Positions 1,885 to 10,795 of a stretch of 64,000 nt of DNA are shown here, piece after piece. The notes under the pieces are model-generated. The model did no database searches, was not told the DNA's origin, and worked only from the letters and a program-made list of their open reading frames with translations. Source of the DNA: Candidatus Bathyarchaeia archaeon (GTDB taxonomy: Archaea; Thermoproteota; Bathyarchaeia; Bathyarchaeales; Bathycorpusculaceae); the NCBI GenBank assembly GCA_049516875.1, contig JBEKSS010000011.1:1-64000 (forward strand), read 5' to 3'. Both the position numbers and the translations under genes were made by a program. How positions within the stretch are numbered: the first letter of the stretch is position 1; each line of letters starts with the position of its first letter.

Positions 1885-3804
1885 ATGGAAGAAATCAACT
1901 GGATGGCAGGTGGGCCTCAAGGAGCAGGAGTCGACTCTGCCGCAAACATTTTTGGCAGAGCATGCGGCTACGGCGGCCTTTACGTTTTTGGAAGAAGAGA
2001 GTATCACTCAAACATCAAAGGCTTGCACAGCTATTTTCACTTGCGTGCTTCGCAACGGGAGGTCTTGGCCAACGTGAACGATGTGGATTTGCTGGCTGCT
2101 TTCGACGCTGAAACAGTGGTCAGGCACGTAGGCGAGGTAGTTTCTGGCGGCGGCATAATCGTGGACAAGGAGCAAGTCGGCACACGCGTCCTAGGGATAC
2201 CTACGTTGCCGCCTGAGTTCAGGGATGAAGTTAGCAAGTACATAGGTCAGAAAGGTTTAGGGGAAAGTCTGAGCGACTTTCTCGACGATGCGAAGAAAAC
2301 GGGGGTGCACGTTTTCGAAATTCCATACATGGAACTGCTCAAAACAATCGCGGCAAGGCTTGGAATAGAGCAATTAAGCAAGGTCACCCGCATGATAAAC
2401 GTTCTGACGATGGGAGTTTCTTTTGCATTGCTTGACTATGAGCGTGGCTTGGTTGAGAAGGCTGTCACAGCCGTTTTTTCGGATAAGCCGAAGGTCGTGG
2501 AAATGAACATCATGGCTTTGCGAGAAGCGTACGATTACACGAAGCGGACGTTCATTGATGCTTTTCCTTACAGGCTTGTGAATGCCGATGCGAAGGAAGA
2601 GAGAATCTTCGTTTCAGGAAATGAAGCTGTCGCAATGGGCAAAGTTCTCGGCGGATGTCGCGTCCAAACCTACTATCCCATAACGCCAGCCGCGGATGAA
2701 AGCGAGTACCTCGAGGCTCACGAGATTCTGAAGACTAAAGCCGGAGAGGGAGGAATAGTTGTTCTTCAGACAGAAGACGAAATTGCCGCCGTGAACTCGG
2801 CCTCAGGAGCTGCATTGGCAGGTGCCCGAGCCGCAACCTCAACTTCAGGACCCGGGTTTTCGCTTATGGTTGAGGGCCTAAGCTGGGCTGGCAACTCAGA
2901 AGTGCCCTTGGTTATAACTTATTATCAGCGGGGAGCTCCCGCTACTGGTTTGCCGACGCGCCACGGGCAGGCTGACCTGAGGTTTGCCGTTCACGCTGGT
3001 CACGGAGAATTCCCACGCATAATCCTTGCGTCCGGCGACATCAGAGAATGCTTCTACGACGCTGCACGCGCGTTCAATTATGCAGAACGGTTCCAGCTGC
3101 CCGTTATCCATTTGATCGACAAAGCCATGGCTAACTGTTCCCAAACCTACCCTCTCTTTGACACTAGTCACTTCAAGATTCAAAGAGGTGACATTCTTGA
3201 CGAAACCAAGCTTCAAGATCAACCGTATAAACGGTTCAGTTTTACGGACACAGGCGTGTCTCCAAGAGTCGTGCTGGGCACAAGAAACGGCGTTCACTGG
3301 TGCACAGGAGACGAACACAACGAGTTCGGACACATCAGCGAAGAACCCTTCAACAGGGTCAAGATGGTTGAAAAGAGGATGAAAAAACTCGAATTGATTA
3401 ATAAGGAAGTTCCCGTTGAAGAAAAAGTCAACTTTTTCGGGGACAGAGGCTCTGAAAACATGGTTGTCAGTTGGGGATCTCCGAAAGGAGCTATTCTTGA
3501 AGCCATGGAAGCGTTGAAGGCCGAGGGCTTCAGTCTAGGTTTCATGCAGTTGCGAATGTTGCACCCGCTTCCGAAAGAGTATGTAGCCAGCACTCTGAAA
3601 AAGGCGCGGAAAGTGATTGACGTTGAGGGGAACTACCTGGGGCAGCTCGGAGGGATGCTGAAGGAAGAGACAGGGGTTCAGGTGAACTTCTATGTCTTAA
3701 AGTACACGGGCAGACCGATAACAACGACTGAAGTCTACGCTGCGCTGAAGAATGTCCTGAGTGGACAAGCCGCCGAAAGGCAGGTGTTAACCTATGGCTC
3801 ATAA
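1885..3804 (+). CDS. korA: 2-oxoacid:ferredoxin oxidoreductase alpha subunit (gamma-alpha fusion)
   Basis: GGPQGAG, YYPITP, EDEIAA, TSTSGPGFSLM motifs; 639 aa. Confidence 0.95.
   Translation: MEEINWMAGGPQGAGVDSAANIFGRACGYGGLYVFGRREYHSNIKGLHSYFHLRASQREVLANVNDVDLLAAFDAETVVRHVGEVVSGGGIIVDKEQVGTRVLGIPTLPPEFRDEVSKYIGQKGLGESLSDFLDDAKKTGVHVFEIPYMELLKTIAARLGIEQLSKVTRMINVLTMGVSFALLDYERGLVEKAVTAVFSDKPKVVEMNIMALREAYDYTKRTFIDAFPYRLVNADAKEERIFVSGNEAVAMGKVLGGCRVQTYYPITPAADESEYLEAHEILKTKAGEGGIVVLQTEDEIAAVNSASGAALAGARAATSTSGPGFSLMVEGLSWAGNSEVPLVITYYQRGAPATGLPTRHGQADLRFAVHAGHGEFPRIILASGDIRECFYDAARAFNYAERFQLPVIHLIDKAMANCSQTYPLFDTSHFKIQRGDILDETKLQDQPYKRFSFTDTGVSPRVVLGTRNGVHWCTGDEHNEFGHISEEPFNRVKMVEKRMKKLELINKEVPVEEKVNFFGDRGSENMVVSWGSPKGAILEAMEALKAEGFSLGFMQLRMLHPLPKEYVASTLKKARKVIDVEGNYLGQLGGMLKEETGVQVNFYVLKYTGRPITTTEVYAALKNVLSGQAAERQVLTYGS
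3781..3797 (+). repeat. attL core (17 bp)
   Basis: CAGGTGTTAACCTATGG, identical to 10779-10795. Confidence 0.92.
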
Positions 3805-3857
3805 CTCGAAATTCGCGGTTAACACCCGAACCCAAAATCCTAAACCTACTCATTAAA

Positions 3858-4703
3858 ATGAAGAACAACGGACAAGCCGACACAAGCATCAAAACAGTCA
3901 ACAACATCCTAAAAATCATCAGCAAACACGCCGACCTAAACAACCCCGAAACAGTACAACAATTCATAGCCAACTTACAACGAACCAACACCTACAAAAA
4001 CAACCTATGCAAAACCTATCTAAAATATTGCAGACACTACGAAATCAAATGGACAAAACCAAAATACACACCAGACACCAAAATAATAAAAATACCAACA
4101 AAAGAAAAACTCGAAATGCTGATAGCCACCGCAGGAACAATCCTATCAATCAAACTTCAAATCAGCATGGAAACAGGACTAAGACCAATAGAACTATGCA
4201 ACTTAAAAGTTAAAGACATAGACCTAGAACAACGAACAATCTATCCAACCACAGCCAAACACGGAGCAAGCCGAACATTAAAAATATCCAACAGCCTACG
4301 AGACACAATCCAAAACCACATCAACAAAAACAAACTAAACCTGAATGACAAACTGTTCAAAGGAACACCAACCCAATACGGAAACAACTACCGAGAAATG
4401 AGAAACCGACTAGCCCGAAAACTACACGACCCATCAATACAAACCATCAGCCTCTACGCATTCAGACACTACTTCGCAACCACACTATACGCCAAAACCA
4501 AAGATATACTCCTAGTTAAACAACAAATGGGTCACAAACGAATAGAAACCACCATGATATACACACAACTCCAAAACTACAACGAAGACGAATGGACATG
4601 CAAAACAGCCACCAACGTAACCGAAGCAACCGCACTAATAGAAACAGGATTCGAGTACATACAAGACATAGACGGAATCAAACTATACCGAAAACGCAAA
4701 TAA
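3858..4703 (+). CDS. Tyrosine recombinase, C-terminal fragment (intC); frame is open back through attL
   Basis: TGLRPIE, TAKHG, YAFRH, MGH and TMIY motifs; no stop codon between 3783 and the ATG at 3858. Confidence 0.92.
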   Translation: MKNNGQADTSIKTVNNILKIISKHADLNNPETVQQFIANLQRTNTYKNNLCKTYLKYCRHYEIKWTKPKYTPDTKIIKIPTKEKLEMLIATAGTILSIKLQISMETGLRPIELCNLKVKDIDLEQRTIYPTTAKHGASRTLKISNSLRDTIQNHINKNKLNLNDKLFKGTPTQYGNNYREMRNRLARKLHDPSIQTISLYAFRHYFATTLYAKTKDILLVKQQMGHKRIETTMIYTQLQNYNEDEWTCKTATNVTEATALIETGFEYIQDIDGIKLYRKRK

Positions 4704-4785
4704 CCCCCCTTTCTAACGCGCGCTGTTCTTTGAATCTTAAATTGATTCTACAATTCTAAGCACACTTCAAATTCACAAACTTTAT

Positions 4786-9584: not shown

Positions 9585-9689
9585 CTACGCCTCACATGCT
9601 TCGAAACCGCGCGCACTTTTTCGTTTTTTCCAGCACCCATTTCTTTCGCCTGCTATAGGACAGATAGCAAGTTTTATATAACATATGAT

Positions 9690-10295
9690 ATGACATACCT
9701 AGAATCAGAGGAACATATGTCAAAACTACAAGGCAAAGGGAATAGCTTTCCTCCATTACAGAAACGAATAATTCTGCATCTGGCAGAAAACGGGCCTCAA
9801 ACTATCAATGAAACAAACAAAGGAATCTCGGGAGACTACAAGTCTTCCCATATTGCCTTCCAAACGTTGAAAAAGAAGGGTCTAATCAAAGAAGTAACGT
9901 CGAAACCCTATCGGGGCAGAGAATACCCGCAATTATGGCTCACAGACCGAGGCATATTCCTTGCCTTGTGCCAAGGAGCAAGACCACAGACTATTCTCAG
10001 AAGGACACTTGAAATATATCCTGAAGACAAAGGCTTACAGTTCGTCATAGAAGCTGTGCCTATTCTTGGAAAAAACGCCTTCGATGTATTATATCTCGCA
10101 GCTTCGACCAACGGACAGATAGAACAGACCGACGTGGATTCCATTCTCGCAGCCCAGATGCAGAAGAAGCTTTCTCCCGAAGTAATAAAACAATTCATTG
10201 CAGTGCTCAAAAAGTATCCCGCACAACATAAACGAACTGTGGATTCCATCGAGCAAGCTCGCAAGAATTTGTCAGAAGTATCCGATATGCTCTAA
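9690..10295 (+). CDS. Winged-helix DNA-binding protein
   Basis: QKRIILHLAENGPQTINE...LKKKGLI...WLTDRG pattern. Confidence 0.7.
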   Translation: MTYLESEEHMSKLQGKGNSFPPLQKRIILHLAENGPQTINETNKGISGDYKSSHIAFQTLKKKGLIKEVTSKPYRGREYPQLWLTDRGIFLALCQGARPQTILRRTLEIYPEDKGLQFVIEAVPILGKNAFDVLYLAASTNGQIEQTDVDSILAAQMQKKLSPEVIKQFIAVLKKYPAQHKRTVDSIEQARKNLSEVSDML

Positions 10296-10708
10296 TGCGA
10301 GCTAAAACACAAAGAACCATTCACACGCGATTAAGCAACAACACATAGTTAGAAACGTCGCCCAAGAAGACCCGCACTTCTAACAATGCAGGAAGCAACG
10401 GAAACGCTAGGAGATGAACAAACACAACGCTGAGACACAAAAACAAAACCAACGCCACACAGAAAACCACACGCTAATCTCTAAAACTCGCATAACGGAA
10501 GCCCAGCCATGGCTTCCTTGATACATGCACGATGTATTCAGTAATTGCTCAACACTCATCAGAAAATCTCCTCGGAGACATAAGCCTTTCTCCTTCGGAG
10601 CCTTCCCTCAGGAAACGTGAAAAGGCATATTGTCTCCTCGTCAAAAAACGCATAAAATCAGGAAGTCATGTGCAATACATACCTGACTCGAAGGAGGTGA
10701 AATGAAAA

Positions 10709-10795
10709 ATGGAAAATCTCCCCAACCCAGAACCAAAAGAAAAAGAAAATAAGGACTCATCATTACTAAGGCTAAGGACAGGTGTTAACCTATGG
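10709..10795 (+). CDS. Integrase N-terminal fragment (intN), in frame with intC across the att core
   Basis: SD AGGAGGTGA at 10692-10700; ATG 10709 gives [29 protein letters not shown]; joining at the repeat gives an open 330-aa ORF. Confidence 0.75.
10779..10795 (+). repeat. attR core (17 bp), contains SD-like AGGTG and the ATG of the beta gene
   Basis: Identical to 3781-3797. Confidence 0.92.

Follow-up and report, generated by a model that had tools for sequence, protein, structure and literature searches.

The DNA considered in the present work is a stretch of 64,000 nucleotides (nt) from a Candidatus Bathyarchaeia archaeon, in the following called the window, in which the alpha and beta genes of a 2-oxoacid:ferredoxin oxidoreductase are separated by an insertion of 6,998 bp. 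We will argue that this insertion is an integrated element, which has recombined by means of an attachment site (attP) lying inside its own tyrosine-integrase gene. The chromosomal site (attB) would in that case be the conserved overlap of the two host genes, in which the alpha stop codon lies together with the ribosome-binding site and the start codon of beta. To this reading as a whole we assign a probability of about 85%.

The interrupted gene pair and its empty site

The features on which the argument is built are the following, with att standing for attachment site and int for the integrase gene.

1885..3804, plus strand: alpha gene of the 2-oxoacid:ferredoxin oxidoreductase, 639 amino acids (aa); NF041170, POR, POR_N, PFOR_II
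3781..3797, plus strand: attL core, left copy of the 17-bp repeat; the empty-site joint is 3780 to 10779, with 17 shared letters
3783..3826, no strand: 10-bp inverted repeat, GGTGTTAACC at 3783-3792 (in the core) and GGTTAACACC at 3817-3826 (in the element)
3798..4703, plus strand: intC, the C-terminal 301 integrase codons, open from the core, first Met at 3858; PF00589, 8.1e-22
10692..10700, plus strand: Shine-Dalgarno-like AGGAGGTGA ahead of intN, seen in the sequence; the presumed int promoter lies at about 10630-10680
10709..10795, plus strand: intN, start codon and first 29 codons, in frame with 3798, ending at the end of the core
10779..10795, plus strand: attR core, right copy of the 17-bp repeat, carrying AGGTG ahead of the beta ATG
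10792..11757, plus strand: beta gene of the 2-oxoacid:ferredoxin oxidoreductase, 321 aa; NF041171, TPP_enzyme_C, PFO_beta_C

The alpha product matches NF041170 with 836.8 bits (cut-off 800) and the beta product NF041171 with 454.9 bits (cut-off 423). Judged by these profiles and the Pfam domains listed above, the host pair is an archaeal two-subunit 2-oxoacid:ferredoxin oxidoreductase. The names korA and korB, used in the first-pass annotation of this DNA, are loosely right, but the same profiles and domains make a broad-specificity 2-oxoacid enzyme the better name.

The insertion is bounded by the 17-bp direct repeat CAGGTGTTAACCTATGG, which is exact at both positions, as had been noted at first pass. 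It has only these two matches in the window even when up to 2 mismatches are allowed, against a mean of 0.00 in 100 shuffles, and in a repeat search (family D1) the similarity stretches to 29 nt at 86% identity. The GC content is 0.37-0.45 inside the element versus 0.47-0.54 in the flanks. No tRNA gene is present in positions 1-20000 of the window.

In its present form the alpha gene ends ...RQVLTYGS* through the codons TAT GGC TCA TAA, and its last 7 nt (3798-3804), stop codon included, are element DNA. At attR, on the other hand, the contiguous host sequence reads CAG GTG TTA ACC TAT GGG TCT TAA, with the beta ATG at 10792 inside it. Translation of 1885-3804 and inspection of attR bear out two claims of the first-pass annotation, namely that removal of the element restores this overlapping arrangement and that the GGC TCA TAA supplied by the element preserves the ending QVLTYGS*. 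The core lies within the alpha codons for RQVLTYG, it carries AGGTG seven nt ahead of the beta ATG, and the stretch is conserved across genera. From its position, this AGGTG is likely to be the ribosome-binding site of beta. By analogy with tRNA and RNase P RNA genes, the overlap may offer a stable landing pad. A stretch of 24 nt here packs together the C-terminus and stop codon of one host gene, the apparent ribosome site and start codon of the next, and a frame of the integrase.

The empty site was surveyed by DNA search in 41 genomes, in 11 of which the alpha 3' end was found. Alpha is directly joined to beta, with the overlap present and no insert, in all four same-genus genomes (G001-G004) and in G012, G013, G020 and G029, so that the overlap foreseen for relatives lacking the element does exist. 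The uninterrupted site is of the CAGGTGYTRRCYTATGGTTCTTAA type, for example CAGGTGTTGACCTATGGTTCTTAA.

We have also aligned the contigs of four public runs to positions 3400-11200. One contig of run X5 and one of run X7 pass over exactly 6,998 bp (from 3780 to 10779), with the 17 letters at the joint fitting either side, and run X6 has a loose contig end with the same joint; the empty attB that had been proposed as a check is hence found in nature. The word depths of the two empty-site contigs, which are rough values, are 212 and 1,431 compared to about 4-9 for the element contigs of the same runs. The runs holding the stretch are labelled as peat or wetland metagenomes, and the hosts of the related loci described below are metagenome-assembled genomes of Bathyarchaeia/Bathyarchaeota.

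It is worth asking at this point whether the insertion could be an artefact of assembly or binning, i.e. a chimeric contig joined at a short shared sequence. The genome consists of 20 contigs and has an estimated contamination of 5.4%, which speaks for such an error. However, in run X1, a possible source sample, one contig spans 3400-10598 with zero differences and another covers 10613-11200, an independent metagenome contig of 11,813 bp (L106) is 100% identical over alpha, element and beta, and the same architecture recurs in other assemblies. An artefact is therefore exceedingly improbable, and the X1 contig together with the empty-site contigs indicates that the element is real, contiguous, and polymorphic in natural populations.

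The integrase gene and its start

The integrase gene is distributed over the two ends of the element. The piece at the right end, intN, begins with the ATG at 10709 behind GGAGGTGA, and in the integrated state its frame continues into beta, out of frame with that gene, to 10867. Both intN and intC are free of stops and frameshifts and they have the same phase, the 29 codons of the former and the 301 codons of the latter adding up to 330 aa. This frame arithmetic reproduces the 330-aa open reading frame (ORF) that had been predicted across the junction of the circle, and reading of the frames likewise establishes that the att region encodes the integrase in one frame and the host C-terminus in another. 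A comparison of eight elements located at the alpha/beta site gives the same picture. In each of them the end of the core is preceded by 20-66 open codons in the integrase frame, and attR has a start piece in that frame (seven ATG, one GTG); in seven, neither of the other two frames stays open for more than 9 codons.

The alternative to be weighed against this evidence is a classical lambda-like or pNOB8-like arrangement, in which the integrase starts at the Met at 3858 and stays intact, attP is merely situated just ahead of it, and the in-frame start at 10709 is there by chance. Position 3858 is indeed an ATG, and 57 of the 120 homologues listed (out of 1,090 matches) are called at 281-284 aa, starting from the equivalent Met. 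Furthermore, the YxxR signature of the enzyme is, according to passages of a review (PMC8371274), that of the pNOB8-type integrases, which are not split. At least 10 of the 120 homologues listed, on the other hand, have Leu or Phe in place of this Met (e.g. P0014, P0022, P0041, P0054, P0061, P0073, P0074, P0097, P0099 and P0109), and among the elements at the alpha/beta site the first Met of intC is found anywhere from residue 0 to 114; in the copy of G021, a genome from a different genus, the first start codon leaves only 230 aa of integrase. The classical arrangement is also difficult to reconcile with the integrase frame being the only long open frame across attR in seven of the eight elements, with a start codon available in every case.

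As for the protein, the segment ILNxLI ahead of the 3858 Met is conserved at the amino-acid level in a 34-sequence alignment, and in the AlphaFold (AF2) model of intC, which has a mean predicted local distance difference test score (pLDDT) of 88.9, it forms helix 1 (residues 12-23, pLDDT about 90). The 3858 Met is located inside this helix, and a product started there would, judged by the model, lack most of it. The N-terminal extension sought in homologues is accordingly present as a conserved frame, in many of them with no Met at that position. Alignment and model thus support an integrase that begins upstream of the 3858 Met, and we consider the classical arrangement very improbable.

The conserved ILNxLI segment, helix 1 and the variable position of the first Met together suggest what a self-splitting integration would do. 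In the free circle, intN and intC would form one gene of 330 aa behind its own promoter and Shine-Dalgarno sequence. On integration the catalytic part would lose the promoter, ribosome site and start codon along with a short N-terminal tail, and the int promoter would come to stand in front of beta. The lost tail is probably disordered, as residues 1-8 of the model, just after the core, have a pLDDT below 50. Excision would then require either intact integrase supplied in trans or low-level translation of intC. In three related elements (L151, at 105-130; L166, at 194-220; and L179), the core is followed at once by an ATG that shares letters with the stop codon of alpha, as ATGA, so an almost complete protein could there be translated coupled to alpha. 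This ATGA is the only hint bearing on the first-pass suggestion that intC may be expressed from the alpha transcript.

Upstream of the int start, a non-coding stretch, GAAAAGGCATATTGTCTCCTCGTCAAAAAAC, is nearly identical between the window (10602-10660) and the G021 element (L022:415-470), the integrases of the two being only about 65% identical. A similar motif, CCTCGTC...AAAAAC, is seen in L165. A second ATG at 10702, 7 nt ahead of the int ATG and nearer to GGAGG, opens a 16-codon ORF in another frame (10702-10752), which may compete with or regulate initiation of the integrase.

Around the core, the ...AACACC arm of the inverted repeat is conserved in 9 of 9 attL sequences, and the two copies of the 10-bp repeat are possibly binding sites of the integrase. 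The element side also has a conserved TTACTAAG arm to the left of the core, and about 24 bp to the right of the core GGTGTTRA(Y) recurs in inverted form as (R)TYAACACC. We infer that this arm and inverted copy are candidate integrase binding sites as well.

Recurrent use of the alpha/beta site

The same site is occupied in G021, L039, L150, L151, L161, L165, L166, L179 and L183, so that the search for homologues at an identical insertion point, suggested at first pass, yields related split-integrase elements at no fewer than nine other loci. Of the loci encoding integrase relatives, alpha is directly upstream in 2 of 70 from genomes (L030, which is the G021 contig, and L039) and in 8 of 80 from metagenomes (L106, L150, L151, L161, L165, L166, L179 and L183). 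In G021, alpha ends CAGGTGTTGACTTATGGGTCATAG and is followed by the integrase frame, while beta is found on a separate contig, behind the same core and an in-frame piece that starts with GTG.

Seven elements have both ends on one contig. Their cores are 13-22 bp and their sizes 2,229-6,998 bp, the attR piece in the int frame starts with ATG, and the predicted full lengths of the integrases are 318-345 aa, with intact intC frames of 299-304 aa wherever both ends are known. The element supplies G-S-stop to alpha in six of eight cases, in L161 together with a Met for Thr two residues earlier; the L151 and L166 elements supply G-stop, which makes alpha one residue shorter.

Integrase trees were built without the att-proximal residues. 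The 10 integrases of the alpha/beta site and 5 with another target form one clade (FastTree support 99; SH-aLRT 94.1 in a quick IQ-TREE run with 60 rows), nested in a radiation whose members mostly have the RNase P RNA gene as their target. In an all-against-all BLASTP comparison of ORFs of at least 60 aa, the integrase is the only protein common to the elements at the alpha/beta site, i.e. no shared backbone is found. The site is reused by a clade of related integrases with unrelated cargo.

Several observations weigh against the self-splitting integration. About 2% of the letters in the empty-site contigs are not those of the window, which means that these contigs represent a sister strain without the element and not its excision. 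No circle junction is seen in the contigs of the four runs, contigs being prone to drop rare forms, the predicted attP pattern has 0 matches in viral_contigs, and a start piece joined to an alpha/beta-type core occurs in none of the 120 homologues listed. Because the Met at 3858 is only 20 codons past the core, a 281-aa product from the integrated copy is conceivable. Finally, the int promoter just upstream of the Shine-Dalgarno sequence is presumed, and the recombination activity of the family members is predicted, in both cases from sequence.

The lack of a circle in the run contigs and viral_contigs would also fit a fixed, dead remnant, that is, an old and immobile insertion in which intN and intC are decaying pseudogenes. 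In the same direction points the split state of the integrase, for which no intact copy specific to the alpha/beta site was found in the genome; the other 13 matches are paralogues or fragments, among them L014 and L018 at rnpB-type sites and L017 at a tRNA-derived site. Decay is, however, not what the two pieces show, as both remain free of stops and frameshifts. The element is moreover absent from an approximately 98%-identical strain of the same habitats and from all four same-genus genomes, from which we conclude that the insertion is recent, and the nine other loci with different elements and intact intC point to ongoing use of the site. A dead remnant is hence very improbable, and the self-splitting integration remains by far the best account of the locus.

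Integrase family, other targets and cargo

The first-pass annotation had compared the element with the SSV1- and pTN3-type integrases. With respect to layout the comparison holds: as in the SSV1, pTN3 and pT26-2 elements, attP lies inside the int ORF, int(N) and int(C) are located at opposite ends of the element, and the peptide encoded by att is variable and lies close to the N-terminus (passages of PMC8371274). The SSV1 record likewise places its integration site inside int. Membership of that family, however, does not hold. The only Pfam match of the integrase is PF00589 (8.1e-22), and PF16795 gives no match even at E<=10 in any of the four alpha/beta-site integrases tested, compared to 1.5e-61 for SSV1 Int as a control. 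The similarity to SSV1 Int is insignificant (BLASTP E=0.48), and no fuselloviruses are found among the 25 tblastn matches in the phage collection, although SSV1 is part of it. The catalytic signature is R129...Y220xxR223 (LYAFRH)...H246...Y255, with R129, K154, Y220, R223, H246 and Y255 invariant in the 34-sequence alignment (A1), so that the SSV1-type consensus R...KxxR...Y is replaced by a YxxR form. The attB is not a tRNA gene, as it is for SSV1, pTN3 and pT26-2, but a protein-gene overlap; the split lies 29 codons from the start, as opposed to about 63-78 in SSV1; and the hosts, Bathyarchaeia of peat and wetland metagenomes, are, to go by these labels, probably not hyperthermophiles.

The top Foldseek matches are the XerA structures 5hxy (3.5e-11) and 4a8e, followed by IntI4, Tn1549 Int, XerH, Cre and lambda Int, and these two archaeal XerA structures are the best matches among solved structures in both sequence and fold. 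The AF2 model and Foldseek give a two-domain protein with a helical core-binding domain and a catalytic domain. Together with the PF00589 domain and the R..YxxR..H..Y signature, this is what XerA as well as the type II (pNOB8-type) integrases share with the enzyme. XerA is a chromosomal dimer-resolution enzyme, however, whereas the integrase here belongs to mobile elements and has its gene cut when they integrate; the genes of pNOB8-type elements stay intact, while here the att core separates the start codon and the N-terminal helix. Identity with the XerA equivalog itself was rejected, NF040815 giving 102 bits with a cut-off of 220. On sequence and model, the enzyme is best described as a XerA-like PF00589 recombinase that would act like the type I integrases while standing outside their family. 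In the model, an additional beta-sheet/helix domain follows the catalytic Tyr (residues 266-300, positions 4593-4700 of the window), consisting of strands 266-271, 286-291 and 294-300 and a helix at 274-282; it is conserved in the family, with E265, L280, E282, G284, F285 and Y287 invariant.

The wider family uses a number of other targets. The most common att site is the 3' end of the RNase P RNA gene, which is found upstream of 54 of 119 near-full-length relatives and was identified with Rfam as RF00373, archaeal RNase P RNA (205 bits; L027:9634-9939). All three of its frames are read by one or another integrase, as RRRVTT, EGGLQPT and KAGYNQH, which indicates that the att-encoded peptide is unconstrained. 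Another target is the 3' end of the gene for tfs / RNA polymerase subunit M (PF01096; L051, L052, L055, L057 and L058, at about 9960-9980, and L083), where the gene ends ...YTFREYS* and the element again provides the last codons and the stop. Further targets are a DRG-like GTPase gene, at its 5' end, HAD-hydrolase and rhomboid genes, at their 3' ends, and a GH57 gene, and distant members of the family (37-45% identity) adjoin tRNA genes. The relatives that adjoin 5' ends, next to the DRG-like GTPase and GH57-domain genes, are divergent from them (L173:8810-9991, L159:803-1978 and L176:8787-10022, minus strand). As for viruses, one weak relative (35% identity) among 25 viral loci is the only outcome of the search of viral_contigs with the integrase, and the elements thus show no sign of being known viruses.

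On contig C14 of the genome to which the window belongs (G000), the RNase P RNA gene (34820-35127, L211) is followed by three integrase homologues on the same strand, about 15 kb apart, at 33901-34764 (L018), 18956-19852 (L014) and 3849-4716 (L015/L016, in which stop codons interrupt the frame). The arrangement resembles a tandem array, with related elements placed one behind the other at the RNase P RNA 3' end.

Insertion with preservation of the host protein has precedents in bacteria: the lambdoid phage 21 and the e14 element integrate into icd of E. coli, a central-metabolism gene, and carry a substitute 3' end, which preserves the protein although the DNA sequence changes. These are bacterial systems, with a much longer duplicated segment, an unsplit integrase and no overlapping gene downstream. 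In archaea, Krupovic et al. (2019, PMC6563490, in the passages on these sites) place 14 of 68 thaumarchaeal elements within 3'-distal parts of protein genes; NitEve-E2 replaces the stop codon of its host gene, and one element has a split SSV1-like integrase. The hallmarks of such 3'-end ORF reconstitution (a direct repeat, an empty site in relatives and an element-supplied stop) are all found here. With the NitEve-E2-type elements the present one shares the short att repeat, the empty site in a relative and the element-derived gene end with a new stop, but the same passages do not describe those elements as splitting an integrase at that site, and the start signals of a second host gene are here part of the att as well, as is a third reading frame, that of the integrase.

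The principle of gene splitting and the repair of protein-gene 3' ends are already known separately. The novelty appears to lie in the joint occurrence of the two in another family of recombinases, in Bathyarchaeia that are non-thermophilic (to go by the peat and wetland labels), at a triple-coded overlap. In the passages of the review PMC8371274 that deal with them, the suicidal archaeal integrases constitute one monophyletic group, which arose in a single event, is marked by PF16795, belongs to hyperthermophiles and has switched targets only among tRNA genes. For other archaeal integrases the review does note att sites in protein genes, and the YxxR form is tied to pNOB8-type, non-split enzymes. 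In the literature consulted, neither split integrases in Bathyarchaeia nor an archaeal att site in RNase P RNA is described; the supplementary tables (S2 of PMC6563490 and S1 of PMC8371274) may list targets. At this locus and its relatives, the same splitting layout occurs in another recombinase family, in peat and sediment Bathyarchaeia, with targets that include a protein-gene overlap, tfs and RNase P RNA. If this is confirmed experimentally, gene splitting has evolved on more than one occasion and does not depend on extreme heat, in contrast to the account in those passages of PMC8371274.

One may go further and propose jointly that the Bathyarchaeia hold a second, independent self-splitting lineage, XerA/pNOB8-like, and that the split is a wiring switch and not a suicide. 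The int promoter would be handed to beta, the catalytic piece would be put under the alpha transcript, in some elements by way of ATGA, and the competence for excision would follow the expression of a central-metabolism operon. This joint proposal is tentative, and we hold it to be doubtful.

Four further ORFs make up the cargo of the element.

4786..6168, plus strand: DUF2130-domain protein with a coiled-coil N-terminal part, 460 aa; PF09903, 7.2e-19
6539..8257, plus strand: GmrSD-type (type IV restriction-like) defence nuclease, 572 aa; PF03235, PF07510; PADLOC HEC-06, 6.8e-177
8388..9341, minus strand: ORF, possible HUH rolling-circle Rep-like protein, 317 aa; PHFHCLGY, Cys clusters
9690..10295, plus strand: ORF, possible winged-helix (MarR-like) regulator, 201 aa; Atlas feature and structure neighbours

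Other elements at the alpha/beta site carry a SIR2-domain protein (L039) and beta-helix proteins. With defence genes such as GmrSD/HEC-06 and SIR2 on small elements like these, the elements may be a route by which defence genes are exchanged in an uncultured but abundant archaeal class.

The remaining two ORFs are leads only. The protein of 8388-9341 has no Pfam, NCBIfam or PHROG match; the Atlas clusters closest to it are hypothetical proteins of Bathyarchaeota (0.98), clusters bearing Rep_1 follow at 0.95, and it is possibly an HUH Rep-like protein. Similar-sized minus-strand ORFs of L166 and L039 were considered as its relatives and rejected (E of 0.13 and 11, respectively). The ORF at 9690-10295, which has no Pfam match, possibly encodes a MarR-like winged-helix regulator.

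A very strong strand asymmetry is observed inside the element at 4001-4500 and 8501-9500, with a GC skew of about -0.42 to -0.47 and an AT skew of up to +0.54. The skew at 8501-9500 fits plus-strand coding, as in int. It is the minus strand that carries the longest ORF of this part (8388-9341), which two plus-strand ORFs, 8412-8849 and 8874-9308, overlap.

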